In this document: positions 11,770-21,707 of the stretch, in pieces
How the letters are laid out: the number at the start of each line of letters is the position of its first letter
Numbering within the stretch: the stretch's first letter is position 1
Assembly (NCBI GenBank): GCA_963789955.1
Contig: CAWBMV010000022.1
Coordinates: 544,001 to 608,000, forward strand
Reading direction: 5' to 3'
Source: an uncultured Candidatus Rokubacteria bacterium
Lineage (GTDB): Bacteria; Methylomirabilota; Methylomirabilia; Rokubacteriales; CSP1-6
DNA length: 64,000 nt
The notes under the pieces: generated by a model
The model's input: only the letters and a program-made list of their open reading frames with translations
Told to the model about the DNA's origin: nothing
Databases searched by the model: none
Made by a program: the position numbers and the translations under genes

Positions 11770-13083
11770 TCAGCGGATGGCGAGATCCGCCGGGTCGACG
11801 CCGCGCAAGCCGTAGCGGCCCAGAAAGCGCAGGAGGCCGCGACTGTAGCGCGATGTGGTCGCGGCACCGCTGGCCAGGAGCCCCACGTGCTTCGCGATGT
11901 GCGTCTGCATCGCGCGCTTGACCGCCCCGGGATTCTCCGGCATCCAGGACTTCCCGGCCTGGATCAGCGCCGCCAGCCGACCGTCGTAGAGGTACGCGAC
12001 CAGCTCGAGCCAGGCCGTCAGCATCGCGTTCTGACTGGCCGCGTATGACGTCAGCACGGAGTCGAGCTCGGCGGGCGAGGGGATCGCGCGCCGCCGCAGC
12101 CAGGGCGTGAGCGCGTCGGCCAGCTGCTCGGACGAGCGGAGCGCCAGGAACACGCCCGGCGACAGCATCGGATCGACGAAGCCGAACGAGTCGCCGACCA
12201 TCGCCCAGCCGCGCCCGAAGCCGCGCTCGGAGATCAGCTGGTAGTTGGCGTAGGTCGCGACGTCCGTGACGCGCCGACCTTCGCCGGCGATGAACGTGAG
12301 CCCCGGGTCGATCGCGATGGCGCGCTCGAGCCGCTCCTCCGGCGTGCGCCCCAGGCGCGCCGCGTCGTCCTGGCCCAGCACGATGCCGATCGAGAGCCGC
12401 TCCTGGAGCGGGATGCACCAGCTCCAGCCCGCCTCGCCCCGAGCGATCCGCACCTGGCCCGGCACGTCGTCCCAGCGGCATCCCTCGAAGTGGGCGAAGT
12501 GCGCGACGTCCTTGCGAGGCCCGAGCCGCGCCGGAATGCCGAGCGCGCGAGCCGCGAGTCGGGCGCGTCCGGTCGCGTCGACGATCAGCTCCGGCTGCTC
12601 TCCGGAAAGCGCCGGCGCCGACCTGAGCGTCTCGGGACTCAGCTGGAGCTCCGCCCGCGCCTCAGCCGACGGACTCGGCACCAGTTGCGCTCGCCCGGTC
12701 ACGTAGTCGACGCCCGACGCGATCGCCTTGGCGAGCAGCGCGTCGTCGAAATGCGGCCGCGGGACGTTGTAGGCGTACGGGAAGACGGCGGGCGCGAAGC
12801 GATTGAAGGTGACGCTCACCCGATCCGACCCAGACCAGACGAACGAGACGCCGGGCTTCACGCGGCTGAAGCTGGCCGTTTCCTTTTCCAGATCGAGCCG
12901 CTGCAGGATCGGGATCACCGCGGGGACGAGCGACTCGCCGACGAGCAGCTCCGGGCGGCGTCCGTCGTCGAAGAGCGTCACGGCGGCGCCCTCGCGCGCC
13001 AACAAGATGGCCAGGGCGGAGCCGGCAGGTCCGGCGCCGACGATGGCGACGCGCAGCCGCCGAATCCCGTTGTTGTCGCTCAC
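11770..13083 (-). CDS. FAD-dependent halogenase-like oxidoreductase
   Basis: GAGPAGS, VGESL, RVKPGVSF (conserved Lys), DATGR, WSWCIP (WxWxIP), GDSFGFVDPMLSPGV; GTG 13083 overlaps the upstream stop (GTGA). Confidence 0.8.
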   Translation of the reverse strand: MSDNNGIRRLRVAIVGAGPAGSALAILLAREGAAVTLFDDGRRPELLVGESLVPAVIPILQRLDLEKETASFSRVKPGVSFVWSGSDRVSVTFNRFAPAVFPYAYNVPRPHFDDALLAKAIASGVDYVTGRAQLVPSPSAEARAELQLSPETLRSAPALSGEQPELIVDATGRARLAARALGIPARLGPRKDVAHFAHFEGCRWDDVPGQVRIARGEAGWSWCIPLQERLSIGIVLGQDDAARLGRTPEERLERAIAIDPGLTFIAGEGRRVTDVATYANYQLISERGFGRGWAMVGDSFGFVDPMLSPGVFLALRSSEQLADALTPWLRRRAIPSPAELDSVLTSYAASQNAMLTAWLELVAYLYDGRLAALIQAGKSWMPENPGAVKRAMQTHIAKHVGLLASGAATTSRYSRGLLRFLGRYGLRGVDPADLAIR

Positions 13084-14402
13084 GGCGCGATCCTCCATCC
13101 CATGGCTTCGCGAATCACCTCGAGAATTCTGTCTGCCTCGGCCTCGGACACGACGCCCTCGATCCACGACACGACGAGGTTGTTCCGGCCGCCGCAGCGA
13201 TTGAAGAATACTCCGATCCCCGGTCGCGGGGGAACCACCGGCACATGGTACGCGTTGACGACCTTGCGTCCGAAGCATTCGGCGAGCGCGTCCGGCCAGT
13301 CGGCGAGGTCGGCGCAGTTGAACGAGAACAGCTCCCCGCTCGCCGTCCACGGAAGCACCCGCAGCATCCGCGACAGGGGCTGGTACTGCAGGAACTCCAG
13401 CGCGACCTGGTTGGCCTCGATCTGTCCGTCGCGGACCGCCTCGGCCATCTGACGACGAAGCGTCCGCGCCAGCGCGGGCACGTCCGCGGTCTCGGCGGGC
13501 TGGAATCGCGCGAAGTGGAACGCGAGGTGATTCCCAAAGGTCGCGCCCAGCTCTCCCTTCGGGCGCACGTCGACCGAGATCGGCAGCAGGCACGGGACCT
13601 CGGGTGTCCTTCGCCGGCGCGCGAGCTCCGCCATCGCCTTGCCGACCACCGCGACGCGCCAGCAGATCTCCCGTGTCGCGCGCTGGTCGGTCGAGTCGGG
13701 AGCGACGTAGCTCTGCCGGCGGAAGCAGGCTCGGCCCGGCGGCAGCGGCGGGCCCCCGGGTGAGACCGGCGGCACGGGTGCGAGCGTCCGCAGATATTTC
13801 AGGCTGCCGCCGGCGATGCGGCCGCGCGCGACGAGCGAGCGGCGGTCTTGCTCGGACACGAATGCGGGCGGCGTGTCGCCCCAGGGCGTGTCCTCGTGCC
13901 GGTCGAGCTCGTTGAGGTGCGTCAGGAGAATCTCTCCCCCGCGCGCGTCCATGAGCGGATGAAACCAGGTCAGCACGAGGACGCTCGACGGCGTGGGACG
14001 CGCGGACGAGTCCTCGACGATCAGCATGCGCAGCGGCGCCTCGCGTCGCGGCTCGATGGCGCGGTTGAGCTCGGCCGTCAGCTCGCGCGGGAGCTGCTCG
14101 CGCGCGGTGATGGTGACGCGACGGAGCGACGGGCGCTCGAGCGTCTCGCGCGCTCCGGCGACCCAGTGCAGCTTGCCCCAGGGGAAGGGACGCGTGAGCC
14201 GCGCCGAGGGCCAGGGGCACACGTCGAGAAATCGATCCCAGGCGCGCGTGATGCGGCTCGCGTCGATCCGGCCGTCGCACTCGACGACGAGCGACGTGTT
14301 GTGGCCGAGCCCCACGCCTTTCCACCGAGGGTGGTGCGCCAGCAGGACGAGATCCGCCCCGCGCAGGGGCAGTCGGCGCACGTCTCGCTTCAGCGCGGGC
14401 AA
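13080..14402 (-). CDS. Condensation-domain / CoA-dependent acyltransferase-like protein (PapA/WS-DGAT-like fold)
   Basis: APLRMLIV...LVLTWFHPLMDARG (HxxxD-type), PISVDVRP...FGN; probable TTG start 14402 after GAAGGA. Confidence 0.65.
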   Translation of the reverse strand: MPALKRDVRRLPLRGADLVLLAHHPRWKGVGLGHNTSLVVECDGRIDASRITRAWDRFLDVCPWPSARLTRPFPWGKLHWVAGARETLERPSLRRVTITAREQLPRELTAELNRAIEPRREAPLRMLIVEDSSARPTPSSVLVLTWFHPLMDARGGEILLTHLNELDRHEDTPWGDTPPAFVSEQDRRSLVARGRIAGGSLKYLRTLAPVPPVSPGGPPLPPGRACFRRQSYVAPDSTDQRATREICWRVAVVGKAMAELARRRRTPEVPCLLPISVDVRPKGELGATFGNHLAFHFARFQPAETADVPALARTLRRQMAEAVRDGQIEANQVALEFLQYQPLSRMLRVLPWTASGELFSFNCADLADWPDALAECFGRKVVNAYHVPVVPPRPGIGVFFNRCGGRNNLVVSWIEGVVSEAEADRILEVIREAMGWRIAP

Positions 14403-14512
14403 TGGAGTTCCTTCAGCGAATCGTCTCCTGATACCGGCCAGGACTCTGACCCGGCTTGCAGGGCATGTCAAGGGACCCTACACTCTGCGCGGAGTACCAG
14501 AAGGAGCGAGCG

Positions 14513-15511
14513 ATGGGCGACGTCGGTCTCATGGGCATGCATGTGCCGGGCATGTCGTGGCGCGAGACGCGCGAGGCGGCCGTACTGGCCGAGGAGCTCG
14601 GCTACAGCTGCATCACGATGGGTGAATCGTGGGGCGAGGACGCGCTGACCTCGCTGGCACAGCTCGCGGCCGTGACCTCACGCATTCGAATCGGCAGCAG
14701 CATCGTGCCGGTCTTCGCGCGCTCGCCCGCGAATCTGGCGATGACCGCGCTGAACCTCGACCGCATGAGCGGCGGACGCTTCTTCCTGGGGCTCGGCACC
14801 AGCGGCCGTCTGGTGATCGAGGACTTCCACGGCGAGAAGTTCGCGAAGCCGCTGACGCGGATGCGAGAGTACATCGACATCGTCCGCAAGGCCGCGCGCG
14901 GCGAGCGGCTCGATCACGACGGGGAGTTCTTCCACACCAAGCGCTTCCAGCTCCGGTTCACGCCGCACCGGGCGAGCCTGCCGATCTACATCGCCGCGCT
15001 GAGCCCGCCGAGCCTGCGCATGACCGGTGAGCTCGCCGACGGCTGGCTCCCCATTTTCCTCGCACCCTCGCGCATGGCCGCGGCCGTGGTCGAGCTCGAG
15101 GCCGGGGCCGCGGCGGCCGGCCGCTCGCGGCGCGATCTCGCGATCTCGCCGCAGGTGTCGATCTACGTGACCGACGACGTCGCGGCGGCGCGCGATCGCG
15201 AGCGACCGCACATCGCCTTTTATATCGGGGGCATGGGCGTGTTCTATCACCAGTACATGCAGCGGATCGGCTTCGGCGCCGAGGCCGACCGGGTCCGCGA
15301 GGCCTTCCAGGCGCGCGAGCGCGACCGGGCCGCGAAGCTGGTCACCGACGAGATGGTCGACGCGATGACGATCCTCGGCTCGCCCAAGCAGTGCCGCGAT
15401 CAGATCCAGCGGTTCTTCGACGCCGGCGTGCAGGAGGTCAGGCTCGTCTTCAACGAGCCCAACAAGGACGCCTACCTCACGGCGCTCCGGGCGGTCGCTC
15501 CCCGAGGCTAG
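14513..15511 (+). CDS. LLM-class (F420/flavin-dependent) oxidoreductase
   Basis: AEELGY..I.MGE.WG.DA, TSRIRIGSSI, RSPA.LAMTA..LD.MSGGRF.LGLG, PIYIAAL, ELADGW. Confidence 0.88.
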   Translation: MGDVGLMGMHVPGMSWRETREAAVLAEELGYSCITMGESWGEDALTSLAQLAAVTSRIRIGSSIVPVFARSPANLAMTALNLDRMSGGRFFLGLGTSGRLVIEDFHGEKFAKPLTRMREYIDIVRKAARGERLDHDGEFFHTKRFQLRFTPHRASLPIYIAALSPPSLRMTGELADGWLPIFLAPSRMAAAVVELEAGAAAAGRSRRDLAISPQVSIYVTDDVAAARDRERPHIAFYIGGMGVFYHQYMQRIGFGAEADRVREAFQARERDRAAKLVTDEMVDAMTILGSPKQCRDQIQRFFDAGVQEVRLVFNEPNKDAYLTALRAVAPRG

Positions 15512-15523
15512 AGGGGTGAACCC

Positions 15524-16531
15524 ATGAAATTCGGTCTCTACAGCTCGATCGCGAATCCGCCGCGGGGCGAGCACCTCGATCGCTGCATCGACGAAACTAT
15601 CGCTGAGGCCCAGCTCGCCGAAGCGAGCGGCTTCGATTCGTGTTTCTTCGGCGAGCACCATCAAGATCACGACGGGTTCCTGCCTTCGCCGCTCATCGTC
15701 GCCACCGCCGTCGCCGCGCGCACGCACCGTCTCCGCGTCGGCACCTCGGTGATCCTGCTGCCGCTCCACCATCCGGTGCATGTGGCCGAGGACGCAATCA
15801 CCCTGGACCTCGTGTCCAAGGGGCGCCTCATCCTCGGCGTCGGCATCGGCTACCAGCCGGCCGATTTTCGCGCGTTCTCGGTGCCGATGGAGCACCGAAT
15901 GACCTTGTTCGAAGAGAGCGTCGAGATCATGCGTCTCTGCTGGGCAGGGGAGACGTTTTCGTATCGAGGCAAGCACTACACACTCGAGAACGTCCAGATT
16001 CGCCCGCGGCCCTATCAGAAGTCGGGCCCGCCGCTCTGGTTCGGCGCCAGCGTGCCGGCGGCGGCGCGACGGGCCGGCCGGCTCGCCGACGGATTCGTCG
16101 GCACGCCCAGCACCAGCCTGACGAACGCGACGGAGCTGGCCGACATATATAAGGACGCGGCGCGGACGGCCGGGCGCACGGCCGAGGTCGTGCAGATGCG
16201 CGATGCATGGGCCGCGCGCACCCGCGCGGAGGCCGACGAGGTGTACGGCCCGCACGTGATGGCCGCCTATCGATATTACTGGGAGGCGCGGCTGGCCGAG
16301 TTCCAGAACATGCCGCCCGACACGAAGTTCACCCTGGAGAACCTGGCTCCCGACCGGTTGATCCTCGGCGACCCCGAGGCGTGCGTGAAGGAGTTCCAGC
16401 GCTGGCAGAAGGCGACCGGCGCCAGCACCTTTCTGCTCAGGCTGCGCCACGCCCATTCGGGCGGGCCGCCGCACCCGAAGATCATGGAAGCGATCAGACT
16501 GTTCGGCGAGCGCGTTCTGCCCTATTGTTAG
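15524..16531 (+). CDS. LLM-class flavin-dependent oxidoreductase
   Basis: AEASGFD..FFGEHH, PSPLIVA.AVAART.RLRVGT.V.LLPLHHP..VAED, PRPYQ..GPPLW. Confidence 0.9.
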   Translation: MKFGLYSSIANPPRGEHLDRCIDETIAEAQLAEASGFDSCFFGEHHQDHDGFLPSPLIVATAVAARTHRLRVGTSVILLPLHHPVHVAEDAITLDLVSKGRLILGVGIGYQPADFRAFSVPMEHRMTLFEESVEIMRLCWAGETFSYRGKHYTLENVQIRPRPYQKSGPPLWFGASVPAAARRAGRLADGFVGTPSTSLTNATELADIYKDAARTAGRTAEVVQMRDAWAARTRAEADEVYGPHVMAAYRYYWEARLAEFQNMPPDTKFTLENLAPDRLILGDPEACVKEFQRWQKATGASTFLLRLRHAHSGGPPHPKIMEAIRLFGERVLPYC

Positions 16532-16570: not shown

Positions 16571-16600
16571 TTGACGGTTATCGGAGCGCTTTGCTAGTGT
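16571..16600 (+). promoter_or_regulatory. Sigma70 promoter of the riboswitch operon
   Basis: TTGACG-18 nt-TAGTGT with extended -10 TG, immediately upstream of riboswitch P1. Confidence 0.55.
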
Positions 16601-16612
16601 TTTTCTGTTGCG

Positions 16613-16799
16613 CGCGCCCGGGTGCCCGTTTGGGCCCAGGGAAGGCGGTGCGAATCCGCCGCGACCCCGTCACTGTAACCGGGGACGAAACCCGAAAGAG
16701 CCACTGGCGATTTGCTGGGAAGGCCCGGGGAGTAGGACGATCCGGAAGCCAGGAGACCTACCCGGGCGCGAACCCGAAACCGGTCTTCGAGGGAGGACC
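16613..16799 (+). ncRNA. Cobalamin (B12) riboswitch with translational expression platform
   Basis: P1 CGCGCCCGGG(16613-22)/CCCGGGCGCG(16761-70); GGTG..AGGGAAGGCGGTGCGAATCCGCC; CACTGTAA; GCCACTG...GGGAAGG; B12 box GAAGCCAGGAGACC; hairpin GGTCTTC-GAGG-GAGGACC (16782-99) buries the GGAGG RBS of ATG 16809. Confidence 0.92.
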
Positions 16800-16808
16800 A
16801 GGGATCAG

Positions 16809-17150
16809 ATGATCTTTCCCCAGAACGTCAGTGCGCGGCGCGCCGCGGAGGTGCTGCACCGTGTCTTCGACGGAATTCCCGGCGGCTTTGCCTTTCGCCT
16901 CTGGGACGGATCGGTCGTGAACCTCGGTGGTGGCACGCCCGTGTGCACGGCCGTCGTTCACCAGCCGCAGACCTTCATCCGACTCATTCGTGACCCGACG
17001 CCGCTCACCTTCGCCGAGGCCTACGTCGACGGCTCCATCGACCTCGAGGGCGATCTGTTCGACGCCATGAGCGTCGCGAACTCGATCGAAGAGATTCGCG
17101 TGCCGTTCGTGGAGCGGTTGCGCGTCCTCTTCACTCTCTGGCGTGGCTGA
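16809..17150 (+). CDS. Stand-alone N-terminal (lipid-binding) domain of cyclopropane-fatty-acyl synthase
   Basis: FAFRLWDGS...P.PLTFAEAYVDGSIDLEGDLFDAM resembles the N-terminal domain of full-length Cfa proteins; 113 aa. Confidence 0.75.
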   Translation: MIFPQNVSARRAAEVLHRVFDGIPGGFAFRLWDGSVVNLGGGTPVCTAVVHQPQTFIRLIRDPTPLTFAEAYVDGSIDLEGDLFDAMSVANSIEEIRVPFVERLRVLFTLWRG

Positions 17151-18279
17151 CGTGGCCCAGCACGACGTCATCGTGGTCGGTGGCGGGCCGGGCGGCAGCA
17201 CCGCGGCATGGCGGCTCGCGCGGGCCGGCTTTCGCCCGCTGCTTCTGGACGCCGCGGTCTTTCCACGGGTGAAGATCTGCGCCGGGTGGGTCACCCCCGA
17301 AGCGCTTGCCGACGCCCAGGTCGATCCTCAGAAGTATCCGCTGACCATCCAGGCGTTCTCGGCATGCCGGTTCGAGTTCGACGGCGCGCGCACCGAGACG
17401 CGGTGGCAGCGGCCAGCCAGCTACGGGATCCTCCGCCGGGAGTTCGACCACTATCTGCTCGACCGCGCCCGCGCCGCCGGCGTCGACGTGCGCGAAGGAG
17501 CCCGGGTGACCGAGGTGGCGCAGGACGCCGACGGGATCCGGGTCGTGAGCCCGCACGGCACGTTCAGCGCGCCGCTCGTCATCGGCGCCGGGGGTCATCG
17601 CTGCCCGGTCGCTCAGGCGCTCGGGCAGGTGTCCGAGCAGGAAGAGGTCGTGATCGCGCAGGAGAGCGAGACGCGGCTCACGCCCGAGCGCGTCGAGTCG
17701 CTCGGCAAGTGGTGGGAAGCCCCCGAGCTCTACGTCGAGCCGGATCTCAAAGGCTACGGCTGGTACTTCCCCAAGGGTGACGTCCTCAATGTCGGCGTCG
17801 GCTGCGTGTCGGGCCCCGGTGCGGATCTGCCGCGGCGGCGCGACGCGCTCGTGAGCGCGCTGCGGGCCGCGGGTCGGCTGCCGGCCGATCTCACTATCGA
17901 GCCGTTTCGCGGCCACGCCTACGTCGTGCGCCGCCGCGCGCCGCGCAAGCTCGCCGGCGACCGGTTCTGCCTCGTCGGCGACGCCGCGGGACTGGCGCGC
18001 GATCTGAGCGGCGAGGGGATCGGGCCGGCGATCAAGAGCGGGATCCTCGCCGCCGAGGCGGTCGAGGCGCGCCTGCGCACGGGCGCCGGCTTCGACGCGT
18101 ATGCGGCCGCCATCGTGCGGCGGTACGGAACGGGAGAAACGGGGTGGCTCGGCCGCCAGCTCGCGCGGATCCCCGATTCGTGGGCGCGGGTGTTCGTGCG
18201 CGCCATTCTCAACACGGAAGCCACGAGACGGCACGTCGTATTCGGACGCATCTTCGGGATGCGGGAGGTCGCATCGTGA
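17143..18279 (+). CDS. Geranylgeranyl-reductase-family FAD-dependent oxidoreductase
   Basis: DVIVVGGGPGGS, FPRVKICAG, RREFDHYL, GYGWYFPKG..LNVGVG, VGDAAGL..DLSGEGIGPA. Confidence 0.88.
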   Translation: MADVAQHDVIVVGGGPGGSTAAWRLARAGFRPLLLDAAVFPRVKICAGWVTPEALADAQVDPQKYPLTIQAFSACRFEFDGARTETRWQRPASYGILRREFDHYLLDRARAAGVDVREGARVTEVAQDADGIRVVSPHGTFSAPLVIGAGGHRCPVAQALGQVSEQEEVVIAQESETRLTPERVESLGKWWEAPELYVEPDLKGYGWYFPKGDVLNVGVGCVSGPGADLPRRRDALVSALRAAGRLPADLTIEPFRGHAYVVRRRAPRKLAGDRFCLVGDAAGLARDLSGEGIGPAIKSGILAAEAVEARLRTGAGFDAYAAAIVRRYGTGETGWLGRQLARIPDSWARVFVRAILNTEATRRHVVFGRIFGMREVAS

Positions 18280-19181
18280 GGGCACGCAGCAAGGAAGCGG
18301 ACGCCAAGGCGATCTCGCACCACTACGACGTCTCCAACGAGTTCTACGCGCTGTTCCTCGACCCGCTGATGGTCTACACCTGCGCCTACTATCGCGATCC
18401 CGACGGCAAGCTCGAGCAGGCCCAGCGCGACAAGCTCGAGCTGGTGTGCCGCAAGCTCGAGCTCGAGGCGGGCGAGACGTTGCTCGACATCGGGTGCGGC
18501 TGGGGCAGCCTGTCGATCTGGGCGGCCCAGCACTACGGGGTGCGCGCCCACGGCGTGACCCTGTCGAAGGCACAGGCCGACTACGCGACCGAGCGCATCC
18601 GCCAGGAAGGGCTCGAGGACCGCTGCAAGGTCGAATATCGGGACTACCGCGATCTGCCGCCGGACGTGCGCTTCGACAAGATCGCCGCGGTCGGGGTGAT
18701 CGAGCACGTCGGCATTCCGAACTATCCCGCGTTCTTCGGCGGCGTTCACCGGATGTTGCGGGACGGCGGCCTCTATCTGAATCACGGCATCGTTCACGAG
18801 TTCCACTGGAAGGCGAGCAGCCAGACCGAGTTCCTCTATCGCCACGTCTTCCCGAACGGCGATCTGGCGGGGCTCAGCGAGACGATCACCGAGATCGAGC
18901 GCGCCGGCTTCGAGATCGTGGACGTCGAGGGGCTGCGGCTGCACTACGCGCGGACCTGCCGCCACTGGGTCGAGCGCCTGCGCGAGCGGGCCGACGAGGC
19001 GCGCGCGCTGGCCGGCGAGCGGACGTACCGGACCTGGCTTCTCTACCTGACGTGCTCGGCGGTCGCGTTTGCCGAGAGCTCCATCGGGCTCTACCAGGTC
19101 CTGACCAGAAAACAGCATGATCCCGTCGTGACTCGCGCGCCACACACGCGCGAGCACCTATACGGCAAGGCATTCCTGTGA
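18276..19181 (+). CDS. cfa: CFA/CMAS-family SAM methyltransferase, catalytic domain only
   Basis: ISHHYDVSNEFYALFLDP.MVYTCAY, LEQAQ..KL, LLDIGCGWG, GVTLS..Q, EHVG, NHGI, VFP.G, HYARTC..W; GTGA overlap with the upstream gene. Confidence 0.9.
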   Translation: MRARSKEADAKAISHHYDVSNEFYALFLDPLMVYTCAYYRDPDGKLEQAQRDKLELVCRKLELEAGETLLDIGCGWGSLSIWAAQHYGVRAHGVTLSKAQADYATERIRQEGLEDRCKVEYRDYRDLPPDVRFDKIAAVGVIEHVGIPNYPAFFGGVHRMLRDGGLYLNHGIVHEFHWKASSQTEFLYRHVFPNGDLAGLSETITEIERAGFEIVDVEGLRLHYARTCRHWVERLRERADEARALAGERTYRTWLLYLTCSAVAFAESSIGLYQVLTRKQHDPVVTRAPHTREHLYGKAFL

Positions 19182-19206
19182 CCCAACGACCGGAAAGGAA
19201 GATGCG

Positions 19207-19947
19207 TTGACTCGTCAGATCTTGATCATCACGATCGCGTCGTTCGTCCTGGCGGAGATTTCCACCTTCGCGACCTCCATCTATCTGCACCGCGCGCTGG
19301 CGCACCGATCGCTGTCCCTGCAGCCGGTGACGGCCCTGCTGTTCCGCGCGGCGCTCTGGCTCCTGACCGGTCAGAGCCAGCAGCAGTGGGTGGCGGTCCA
19401 CCGTAAGCACCACACGTTCACCGACCGCGACGGCGACCCGCACAGTCCGCTGCTCCTGGGCTTCTGGAAGGTGCAGCTGTGGAACGCGTACTACTACATC
19501 CGCGAGGCCCGGCAGCCCAAGACCGTGGAGACCTTCGCGCCCGATCTGGCCCCCGACTGGTGGGAACGGCGCGTGTTCTCGTGGGGCTGGACCGGCCTCT
19601 TCCTCGGCACCGCGCTCGTCATGCTCGCCATCGGCTGGTGGCAGGGCATCCTGGCCATGATCGGCCACGGCATCATCTATATGTTCATCCTGGCGCCGCT
19701 GATCAACGGCCTCGGCCACTGGGCGGGCGGCCAGAACTTCCAGAACACGGCCTACAACTCGCGCGTGCTCGCGTGGCTGACCGGCGGCGAGAGCCTGCAC
19801 AACAACCACCACGCGTTTCCGCGCTCGCCGAAGTTCAGCTTGCGGCGCTCGGAGCTCGATCCCTCGTGGGTCGCGATCCGGCTGCTGGCTGCCTTGCGTC
19901 TGGTGGCGATCGTCGGGGCGCCGCTGCGGGCGCGGACGACGCGCTAG
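19207..19947 (+). CDS. Membrane fatty-acid/acyl-CoA desaturase (Delta9-like)
   Basis: Three His boxes HRALAH, HRKHH, HNNHH; DPHSP; INGLGH; GE.LHNNHH.FP.S; TTG start with AAGGA RBS. Confidence 0.92.
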   Translation: MTRQILIITIASFVLAEISTFATSIYLHRALAHRSLSLQPVTALLFRAALWLLTGQSQQQWVAVHRKHHTFTDRDGDPHSPLLLGFWKVQLWNAYYYIREARQPKTVETFAPDLAPDWWERRVFSWGWTGLFLGTALVMLAIGWWQGILAMIGHGIIYMFILAPLINGLGHWAGGQNFQNTAYNSRVLAWLTGGESLHNNHHAFPRSPKFSLRRSELDPSWVAIRLLAALRLVAIVGAPLRARTTR

Positions 19948-19954
19948 GACGGCG

Positions 19955-21013
19955 ATGGCGCCTCCGCCGCTCGAGCTGAGTCTCGAGCTCTCGGCGCGCG
20001 AGCGCTTCGAGATGGTCGAGCTGCGCTCGCGCTTCTCGAGCGAGCACGCCGACTCGCTCGCGTCGTATCCGCGGTGCCTCTACTGGTCGGCCCACACGAC
20101 GGCCGGGTTCCTGGATCGCAGCCTGATCAGGGACCTGGACTCCGACCACATTTCCACCTACATCGAGACCTTGCGCCAGATCTTCCCGGAGGGCGCGGGG
20201 TACGCGCACGACCGGCTGGAGCGCCGCAAGGATCTCGACGCCGCCCAGCGCGCGGTCGAGCCGCGCAACGGCGACTCGCACCTGGCCTTCATCACCGGCG
20301 GGCTCCAGCCGTGCGTGACCCACCCGAACCGCGCCGGCGAGTCCGTGTGTTTCGTCGACCTCGACGGCGTCAACGACGGGCGGCCGCGCCGCCGCCAGAC
20401 GCGCGTGATCGGTTTCCATCGCGAGATGGTCGCCGGGCAGATGCGCCTGCGGGTGCCGCTCTCCGGGCATTCGATCGACTCGGTCAATCTCAAGAGCCCG
20501 GCGCTCGGTCTCTACGACCAGCTTGCCGAGTTCGTGGCGCGCTCCGATGTGGACAAGGGCCGGCTCCACATCGCGCTCGGCCGCGGCGAGCGAGATGCCG
20601 CGCTGACGATCAACGAGTTCGAGACGCTCCTGATGAAGAACGACCTGGCCGCCGTGCTGAAGAACCCGCTCCGGTTCATGGCGGAGGAGTACCGGCAGGC
20701 GCTGGCCAACCCCCGCGCGGTGCCCGGCAAGGCGCTCGGCTACGCGCAGTACGATCTGGTCCGCGTGCTCAACACCGGCCTCAAGACGCTCGGCCTGCAC
20801 GGCTCCGTGCTGGAGCGGGTGCTCGCCCGCACCCTGGCGGTGCCCGTGGCCCGAATGTTTCGCGTGAGGCGGTCGATCAGCGTGCTGGTGGCCGGTGATG
20901 GAAGCCGCTCCGGCCCCGTCGAGGGCGTTTATCAGAGCCCGATCCTGATCCAGTGGCAGCGCGCGCCTCGAGACCTGCGCGAGCTCGACGTCACGCTGTA
21001 TCGGCTCGAGTAG
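19955..21013 (+). CDS. Hypothetical protein with tandem YjbQ (UPF0047)-like domains
   Basis: YjbQ-like motifs HTTAG, Y.HD, NGDSHL, DLDG..PRRR in the first half; degenerate second copy (AALTINE, G.YQSPILIQW..PR). Confidence 0.6.
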   Translation: MAPPPLELSLELSARERFEMVELRSRFSSEHADSLASYPRCLYWSAHTTAGFLDRSLIRDLDSDHISTYIETLRQIFPEGAGYAHDRLERRKDLDAAQRAVEPRNGDSHLAFITGGLQPCVTHPNRAGESVCFVDLDGVNDGRPRRRQTRVIGFHREMVAGQMRLRVPLSGHSIDSVNLKSPALGLYDQLAEFVARSDVDKGRLHIALGRGERDAALTINEFETLLMKNDLAAVLKNPLRFMAEEYRQALANPRAVPGKALGYAQYDLVRVLNTGLKTLGLHGSVLERVLARTLAVPVARMFRVRRSISVLVAGDGSRSGPVEGVYQSPILIQWQRAPRDLRELDVTLYRLE

Positions 21014-21025
21014 TCGGCCGCGCGC

Positions 21026-21634
21026 TCAGGCGCCGGTTCCAAAGCCTCCCGCGCTCCGCACCGTGGCCGCTTCGCCGAGGTGACCCGCCGAATGGAAGAG
21101 CGCGATGCCGCTCAGCATCGCCGAGCGCGGCCGCCCCGGGAACGCCTTCACGATCTGCTCGGTCCGTATGCCGAACGCGCCCTCACTGGCCGCGCGCTGG
21201 ACGGCGTCGGCCGCGACCGTGCCGTCCCAGTCCTGTGATTTGAAGCTGCCGACCACGTCGCGCGTGCGACGGCCCACCGCGTCGCGATACTCGCGAAGCG
21301 CGCCGAGCTCGATCTGTCGCGTGAGCTCCGTCACCTCGGCGCTGGTCATGCCGATGCCGAAGTCGCGCCGCGTGATGGCCAGGCGCTTGGCCCAGCTCTC
21401 GTCGTCGAACAGTTGCGTGCGCGCGCCCAGGATCGTGTTGACGAAGATGTCCTCGGCCCGCGAGATGTGAAACATGACCCACGCCAGCGAGTTCAGGTCC
21501 TCGCGCGGGCGCACGCGCATCTGCTCGTCGGTCAGGCCGGTGAAGGTGCGCTCCGACGCCGACATCTTGTTGCCGCCGACGGCGGCCGAGTGCATCGCGG
21601 CGTGCTGGTCCAGGAACAGGTCACGAACGTCCAT
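21026..21634 (-). CDS. DinB/YfiT-family protein
   Basis: LTDEQM...NSLAWVMFHISRAED and C-terminal HSAGHLGE metal-His motifs. Confidence 0.75.
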   Translation of the reverse strand: MDVRDLFLDQHAAMHSAAVGGNKMSASERTFTGLTDEQMRVRPREDLNSLAWVMFHISRAEDIFVNTILGARTQLFDDESWAKRLAITRRDFGIGMTSAEVTELTRQIELGALREYRDAVGRRTRDVVGSFKSQDWDGTVAADAVQRAASEGAFGIRTEQIVKAFPGRPRSAMLSGIALFHSAGHLGEAATVRSAGGFGTGA

Positions 21635-21649
21635 GGGTGTCCCCTGTCT

Positions 21650-21707
21650 TGCGCGCCGCAGGCGGTCGCGGGGCTGGGATCCCCGCCGGCCGAGGCGCGC
21701 CTATCAA
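21650..21707. repeat. REP-like GC-rich hairpin repeat, copy 1 (copy 2 at 55568-55624)
   Basis: TGCGCGCCGCAGGCGGTCGCGGGGCTGGGATCCCCGCCGGCCGAGGCGCGCCTATCAA; about 53/58 identical to copy 2; nested stems. Confidence 0.85.

Follow-up and report, generated by a model that had tools for sequence, protein, structure and literature searches.

The stretch considered here, termed the window, is 64,000 nucleotides of DNA from an uncultured Candidatus Rokubacteria bacterium (contig CAWBMV010000022.1, positions 544,001 to 608,000). It carries a five-gene operon preceded by a complete cobalamin riboswitch. The genes encode the two halves of a split Cfa-family methyltransferase with a flavoprotein gene lodged between them, a fatty-acid desaturase and a YjbQ-fold protein. 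On balance, the operon appears to make mid-chain methyl-branched membrane acyl chains, its translation being switched off when corrinoid is plentiful. The riboswitch is under selection in some lineages and has been lost repeatedly elsewhere. The features are as follows.

16572..16600, plus strand: promoter-like site, with a -35 element TTGACG (16572-16577), a 17-nucleotide spacer and an extended -10 element TG-n-TAGTGT (16592-16600)
16603..16779, plus strand: cobalamin riboswitch aptamer (RF00174), L5 loop CCC at 16666-16668
16782..16799, plus strand: P13 hairpin with the Shine-Dalgarno (SD) sequence GGAGG (16792-16796), its loop complementary to L5
16809..17150, plus strand: N-terminal domain of the split Cfa-family methyltransferase (CfaN), 113 amino acids, DUF7884
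17143..18279, plus strand: TmpA-like flavoprotein of the GGR family, 378 amino acids, putative methylene reductase, TIGR02032
18276..19181, plus strand: catalytic domain of the split Cfa-family S-adenosylmethionine (SAM) methyltransferase (CfaC), 301 amino acids, CMAS (E 1e-92)
19207..19947, plus strand: membrane fatty-acid desaturase, 246 amino acids, PF00487, His boxes at residues 28, 65 and 198
19955..21013, plus strand: YjbQ/UPF0047-fold protein, 352 amino acids, about twice the usual length, by Foldseek and AlphaFold

The five open reading frames follow the riboswitch on one strand; overlaps of 8 and 4 bases join the first three, and gaps of 25 and 7 bases precede the fourth and the fifth. 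The first-pass annotation, made from the letters of the window, had described five tightly linked genes, and the domain matches agree with it. The best NCBIfam match of the methyltransferase is the cyclopropane synthase CfaB, against which the two halves score 342 and 27 bits (cut-off 650) and do not qualify as a single two-domain chain. The nearest intact relative, P0248, is 57-58% and 42% identical to the two halves, the latter figure being that of CfaN with the P0248 N-terminus. CfaN is a separate open reading frame in relatives also, and the two products would probably assemble as a two-chain enzyme. CfaC has a SAM motif; its residues C36, E143, H170 and Y224 are invariant and I172 is nearly so, and these five we take to be the Cfa bicarbonate site.

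The flavoprotein scores 186.5 bits against TIGR02032 (cut-off 158.8), with weak scores also to MenJ and archaeal GGR models, and is 45% identical to the TmpA-like protein P0126. The desaturase reaches 198 bits against a DesA-family model, under the cut-off of 400. A desaturase paralog, 63% identical, lies elsewhere (L191:5706-6748, G000 contig C14), after a small open reading frame of 98 amino acids. The fifth protein is weak by hidden Markov models. Foldseek gives YjbQ structures as its top matches (E 3e-6), with an AlphaFold model built on 27 alignment rows that has a predicted local distance difference test score (pLDDT) of 72.8, against 34 in a single-sequence run. Of 50 genomes from other phyla, eight have YjbQ-like homologs, whose neighbours at the seven loci read have nothing in common and no link to lipids or B12. 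Contigs from four other samples bridge the riboswitch-CfaN, CfaN-reductase, reductase-CfaC and CfaC-desaturase junctions, and thus these junctions are not assembly artefacts. Contigs from RNA libraries cover the operon but also both of its flanks, and are therefore not counted as operon transcription.

The leader is well defined. Its RF00174 match scores 116.1 bits against a gathering threshold of 31.5 (E 2e-28), spans the full model (positions 1-189) and is the sole Rfam match within the window, which bears out the complete riboswitch read at first sight. The ribosome-binding site is buried, as was also proposed. GGAGG lies inside P13, whose pairs are kept across nine intact leaders in all but one cell of the alignment. 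The CCC/GGG of L5 and L13 is invariant in the nine, and the pairs are mostly invariant, which leaves little covariation. The SD of the window is 12 bases from the CfaN start. In four relatives (G011, G012, G007, G186) it serves, by eye, a short open reading frame whose stop overlaps the CfaN start, and the ATG of this short frame is lost in the window. The proposed promoter fares less uniformly, as the TTGACG-17 nt-TAGTGT site is kept in the alignment of relatives' loci and a generic sigma-70 scan finds no promoter at the operon. A pattern drawn post hoc from that alignment occurs in 23 of 28 five-gene-type loci, in none of 32 other loci and at three places in the 6.77 Mb genome.

The L5-L13 kissing loop is the described mechanism of this class of cobalamin riboswitch (PMC10327014). 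In the operon, the B12-bound aptamer would stabilise P13 through the kissing loop and so hide the SD; conservation argues for the structure, and the switching is predicted from it. The translational block would then be passed to the reductase and the catalytic half through the stop and start codons that overlap. The P13/SD hairpin is also found before cobU and cbiA/cobB genes, salvage genes that as a rule are repressed by B12, and one activating corrinoid riboswitch exists (PMC10327014). Because the hairpin is common to these B12-repressed leaders, repression is the likelier sign, and B12 probably represses the operon, as first suggested. Folding of the whole leader is no better than that of shuffles (z -0.73). 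A general anti-SD switch, judged by folding energy, was set aside, since the SD-freeing alternative, in which the B12 box pairs with the anti-SD, is seen in the window alone (at 0.83) of five operon leaders scored.

At 1e-45 the reductase has matches in 99 of the phylum's 251 genomes and in 95 of the 158 other genomes of the window's family; the phylum tallies here and below include the unpublished genomes G233, G115 and G084, and no conclusion hinges on a single one of these. At NCBI, close homologs bear the label Rokuibacteriota or Methylomirabilota, and the reductase has no plasmid match at 1e-25. Loci were read from about 57 of the 99 genomes, and throughout these the two halves of the split methyltransferase gene enclose the reductase gene, with codons that overlap. 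A reductase tree of 63 rows contains 28 five-gene-type loci, 24 with the desaturase, and a clade of 30 three-gene loci that have neither desaturase nor riboswitch (Shimodaira-Hasegawa-like approximate likelihood-ratio test, SH-aLRT, 100). Its root rests on a long outgroup branch, and the order of the three- and five-gene forms is unsettled. Synteny is conserved, as had been expected: of 47 metagenome loci that extend 3.3 kb or more downstream, 44 have the five genes in the same order. It should be pointed out that the metagenome loci are the best 80 of 113 found with CfaN and include many near-copies, which are not independent. One genome, G019, has three near-identical three-gene operons on three contigs (L043, L044, L045), by duplication or as a binning artefact.

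The riboswitch is intact in nine of the 28 five-gene-type loci (G000, G011, G012, G007, G228, G186, G184, G185, G243), a remnant in seven (five by model, two by alignment alone) and absent in 12. Its aptamer core is 91-98% identical to that of the window in seven relatives and 80% identical in G243, which belongs to another family and was left out of riboswitch model training. At the same loci, identity at four-fold sites of the reductase is 45-61%. The leaders of eight same-family operons group in a single clade, whose sisters are cbiA/cobB leaders and which excludes those of cobU (FastTree 0.92, 0.91); the G243 leader is unplaced in this tree. As the operon leaders are separate from the cobU leaders that these genomes also carry, gene conversion from a cobU leader is unsupported as the source of conservation. 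The clade, together with conservation above that of four-fold sites, indicates an old switch that was inherited with the operon; some lineages have kept it by selection, and many have lost it. The leader probably arose by duplication of a cobalamin-salvage leader, and has since seen purifying selection in some lineages and deletion in many others.

The losses are themselves of interest, with one locus losing its riboswitch many times in parallel while paralogs stay. By eye, the metagenome loci show at least a dozen distinct deletion endpoints behind the conserved promoter, and one locus whose CfaN is 98% identical has lost the middle of the aptamer. Other B12 riboswitches are retained in 44 of 45 genomes. 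Perhaps, then, the chemistry is the same and its B12 control an accident, a salvage leader having been captured before the operon and now being purged. The many deletions beside retained riboswitches would fit, as would the sister position of cbiA/cobB leaders and the short leftover reading frame after the SD in several relatives. So would the lack of any riboswitch in 80 loci of the tmpBA type, in which a TmpA-like reductase gene accompanies a cfa gene (by the analysis's own model; Rfam control, 0 of 13; one of the 80 is in the unpublished genome G252). Against this, intact copies are conserved far above synonymous sites over protein identities of 72-92%, and one is in another family. Such long persistence makes a useless or harmful switch unlikely, and accidental control is a doubtful explanation.

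Desaturation, methylenation and flavin reduction, the chemistry put forward by the first-pass annotation, is the likeliest route to a mid-chain methyl branch. In published work, operons for 10-methyl fatty acids are recognised by a Cfa-like gene beside a TmpA-like reductase gene (PMC7791843). That 2021 paper, the only one found in the literature on tmpB of Marinobacter and 10-methyl lipids, describes tmpBA (for ten-methyl palmitate), a Cfa-like methyltransferase with the GGR-like flavoprotein TmpA, from Desulfobacter, Desulfobacula, Marinobacter and Thiohalospira. In E. coli, four of five tmpBA operons led to 10-methylene palmitate and, according to the available text, none to the methyl acid (PMC7791843). 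The idea that a GGR-type reductase would be unlike the known one must be dropped, TmpA being GGR-like itself.

The methyltransferase might instead yield cyclopropane or some other modified lipid, with the reductase acting elsewhere, for example on an isoprenoid or quinone chain. CfaB as best NCBIfam match, lone cfa-family genes as nearest named relatives, the kept bicarbonate residues and the weak reductase matches to MenJ and archaeal GGR all point that way. The residues are indeed conserved, as noted at the outset, but do not discriminate cyclopropane from methyl product, because they are kept in BfaB-type genes and the paper chose its genes by them (PMC7791843). The nesting of the reductase gene in the split methyltransferase gene across about 57 genomes argues otherwise. 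So do the TmpA-like loci of other phyla (the best 80 of 483, fetched with P0126), where cfa is directly upstream in 78, overlapping by two bases in one of them, and the other two are cut off at contig ends. Moreover, the methyltransferases found beside TmpA vary in sequence, and every active one yielded methylene acids (PMC7791843). A cyclopropane or unrelated product is thus rather improbable.

The likeliest purpose of the operon would be to provide methyl-branched lipid at times of limited B12-dependent lipid methylation. A stricter version supposes an isozyme pair, in which a B12-dependent radical-SAM enzyme methylates the saturated chain directly and the operon makes the same lipid without B12. 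A desaturase, a methyltransferase and a reductase are, by chemical inference, what replacement of radical methylation at an unactivated carbon needs. The riboswitch is confined to the desaturase-bearing type, and eight of the nine intact loci carry both desaturase and YjbQ genes. The window genome has 11 B12-binding matches; HpnR, HpnJ and a CUAEP-tail enzyme are among them, as are four unclassified radical-SAM proteins. HpnR, the B12-dependent hopanoid C-3 methylase, is a B12-dependent lipid methylase that this genome encodes.

Co-occurrence with B12-binding radical-SAM genes, which the first-pass annotation led one to expect, is not seen. None of the five mapped (HpnR and the four unclassified, out of seven) tracks the riboswitch. 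Of nine genomes with an intact riboswitch, seven have HpnR, as do most of those that lost it. The P0431 family occurs in four of the nine, in nine genus members whose riboswitch is gone and in 6 of 20 genomes of family f13; the C6 enzyme is in six of eight other intact genomes, 17 of 19 that lost it and none of four from f13. Two C14 enzymes occur in 1 and 4 of 31 genomes, and unrelated genes fill the 9 kb between a C14 enzyme and the desaturase paralog. HpnR and the C6 enzyme are widespread enough that they could be partners that merely do not track the riboswitch. With no candidate that tracks, a strict isozyme pair seems unlikely.

Other observations concern these enzymes. In genus g22 an intact Cfa-family gene of 397 amino acids lies 15 bases upstream of hpnR (L335:2877-5570, G132), and the layout is alike by coordinates in G136, G141 and G135; this adjacency is a second link of Cfa-like enzymes to B12-dependent lipid methylation. 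An unclassified B12 radical-SAM gene at L194:6532-8026 (G000 contig C34), 77% identical to one in some f13 genomes, is in two frames in G000 and likewise in G243, as an assembly error or a pseudogene.

Family f13 is taken as Methylomirabilis because of a pmoA-like gene, which scores 284-292 bits, under the cut-off of 318. A Cfa-family match was found in 1 of its 20 genomes and in none of the four near-complete ones, and no close TmpA was found in the family. G093, G094, G089 and G101 bear pmoA and a desaturase, with no Cfa-family gene or close TmpA. Unclassified radical-SAM candidates of the B12 type in G093 are L243 and L248, the latter a TIGR03960 member. The link to Methylomirabilis first drawn is thus reversed, as those genomes are without this pathway. 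The lipid data for Ca. M. oxyfera reportedly come from enrichment cultures. The fatty acid 10-methyl C16:0 has been called putatively diagnostic for this organism (bioRxiv 10.1101/2021.11.24.469942). Since 19 of 20 Methylomirabilis-type genomes have no Cfa-family gene, a Cfa-free route to 10-methyl lipids may exist, which favours the isozyme pair. This raises the concrete question of how Methylomirabilis makes 10-methyl C16:0. As a long shot, an undescribed cobalamin-dependent radical-SAM enzyme in Methylomirabilota might methylate the saturated acyl mid-chain. The operon would be its O2-using, B12-free substitute, and Methylomirabilis would make 10-methyl C16:0 by the B12 route alone.

No CbiF/CobM was found over cut-off in 58 genomes, so the cells depend on salvage of B12, whose supply may vary. 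The same result rules out that the riboswitch was lost in B12 producers. The window genome, 87% complete, has two more B12 riboswitches, one of them before a cobU-like gene that is followed by cobT; in G184, metE is under a B12 riboswitch. Riboswitch-led cbiA/cobB genes occur in genomes without CbiF/CobM (L304, L308, L310, L313, L314, L332), which suggests salvage of an early corrinoid.

Several findings weigh against a B12-repressed operon for methyl-branched lipids. An intact riboswitch is missing from 19 of 28 five-gene-type and all 30 three-gene loci, and just 16 of 80 metagenome loci have one (13 whole, three at contig ends). G007 has an intact riboswitch without desaturase and YjbQ genes. 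To these may be added the lack of a tracking partner and the absence of the SD-freeing fold from the four other scorable operon leaders. As no MetE match was found in the 87%-complete window genome (query, the first 456 residues of G184 MetE), a SAM-consuming pathway would switch on when methionine synthesis is limited. On the product side, TmpA was inactive in E. coli and yeast (PMC7791843). The window methyltransferase resembles lone CfaB-like genes (52-54% identical) more than TmpB-type partners, which makes a cyclopropane product conceivable. Methyl-branched chains under B12 repression are nonetheless favoured here.

Upstream, at 11770-16531 of the window, the plus strand carries two luciferase-like monooxygenase genes and the minus strand a flavoprotein-like open reading frame and one of 463 amino acids with no real Pfam match. 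Upstream neighbours vary among relatives, and hence these genes are outside the operon. Downstream, positions ~21519-21700 draw far more contigs than their surroundings in all four runs, with strand-changing joints, and are probably a repeated palindromic element.

10-methyl fatty acids are markers for actinomycetes and sulfate reducers. With a reductase relative in 95 of 158 family genomes, Rokubacteria may be an unrecognised source of these acids, with output possibly varying with B12. Membrane-lipid branching would be tied to B12 supply in an abundant soil lineage that depends on salvage. The operon also offers new parts with which the putative TmpA step can be studied, and what would be a Cfa enzyme of two chains in nature; the YjbQ-like protein may supply a factor missing for TmpA.

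It remains to compare the operon with known systems. The cobU, cbiA/cobB and metE riboswitches of the same family share the aptamer, and those of cobU and cbiA/cobB the P13/SD hairpin; the operon's riboswitch differs from the cob riboswitches in that it controls lipid genes and is repeatedly deleted while cob copies stay. A precedent dates from 2007, when a B12 riboswitch was reported before ole1, a gene for a fatty-acid desaturase, in metagenomes and a B12-dependent isozyme was proposed (PMC2211319). There a single gene is involved, as far as the available text goes, whereas the window's desaturase gene comes fourth in an operon whose make-up suggests that methylation is the chemistry under control. 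The first-pass annotation knew of no described B12-regulated lipid operon with this architecture; no published B12 control of such an operon was found in a search covering few subscription papers, and the statement must be qualified by the desaturase case.

The bfaAB/tmsAB genes of actinomycetes share the scheme of methylenation followed by flavin reduction of a monounsaturated chain (PMC5660069, PMC7791843), and the tree places the window methyltransferase in one broad region with a Nonomuraea gene whose neighbour is BfaA-like. Unlike the operon, bfaAB/tmsAB have no split gene, and the available text of the two papers reports no riboswitch (PMC5660069, PMC7791843). BfaA is not homologous to the window reductase, whose Pfam and NCBIfam matches are GGR-type, nor to TmpA according to the available text (PMC7791843).

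The closest likeness is to tmpBA, also a Cfa-family methyltransferase with a GGR-like flavoprotein. The window reductase has the TmpA motifs, by eye against published sequences; published TmpB and BfaB sequences were likewise compared by eye. In tmpBA an intact tmpB precedes tmpA, whereas the window has the N-terminal half, the reductase and then the catalytic half, and adds the desaturase, the YjbQ-fold gene and the riboswitch. Its methyltransferase is about 34-42% identical to TmpB-type partners and lies outside the sampled Marinobacter-type TmpB clade. In a quick tree of 78 rows, 21 Rokubacterial and 20 TmpB-type rows form separate groups (SH-aLRT 99 each), the TmpB-type rows being labelled by neighbourhood and eye, with published TmpB and Desulfobacter-type sequences left out. 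The operon as a rearranged Marinobacter-type tmpBA is thus unsupported; a TmpA-type gene appears instead to sit within a cfa gene from a different lineage. One genome in the same taxonomic order (G033, L047:195-3001) has tmpB intact and followed by tmpA in the usual way, an arrangement unrelated to the split operon, and in G027 (L106 / L051) a TmpA-like gene with a contig end upstream is followed by a desaturase 61% identical to that of the window. The operon probably works like tmpBA, yet differs in gene order and methyltransferase lineage; what is new is the lineage, the added desaturase and YjbQ-fold gene, and the B12 control.

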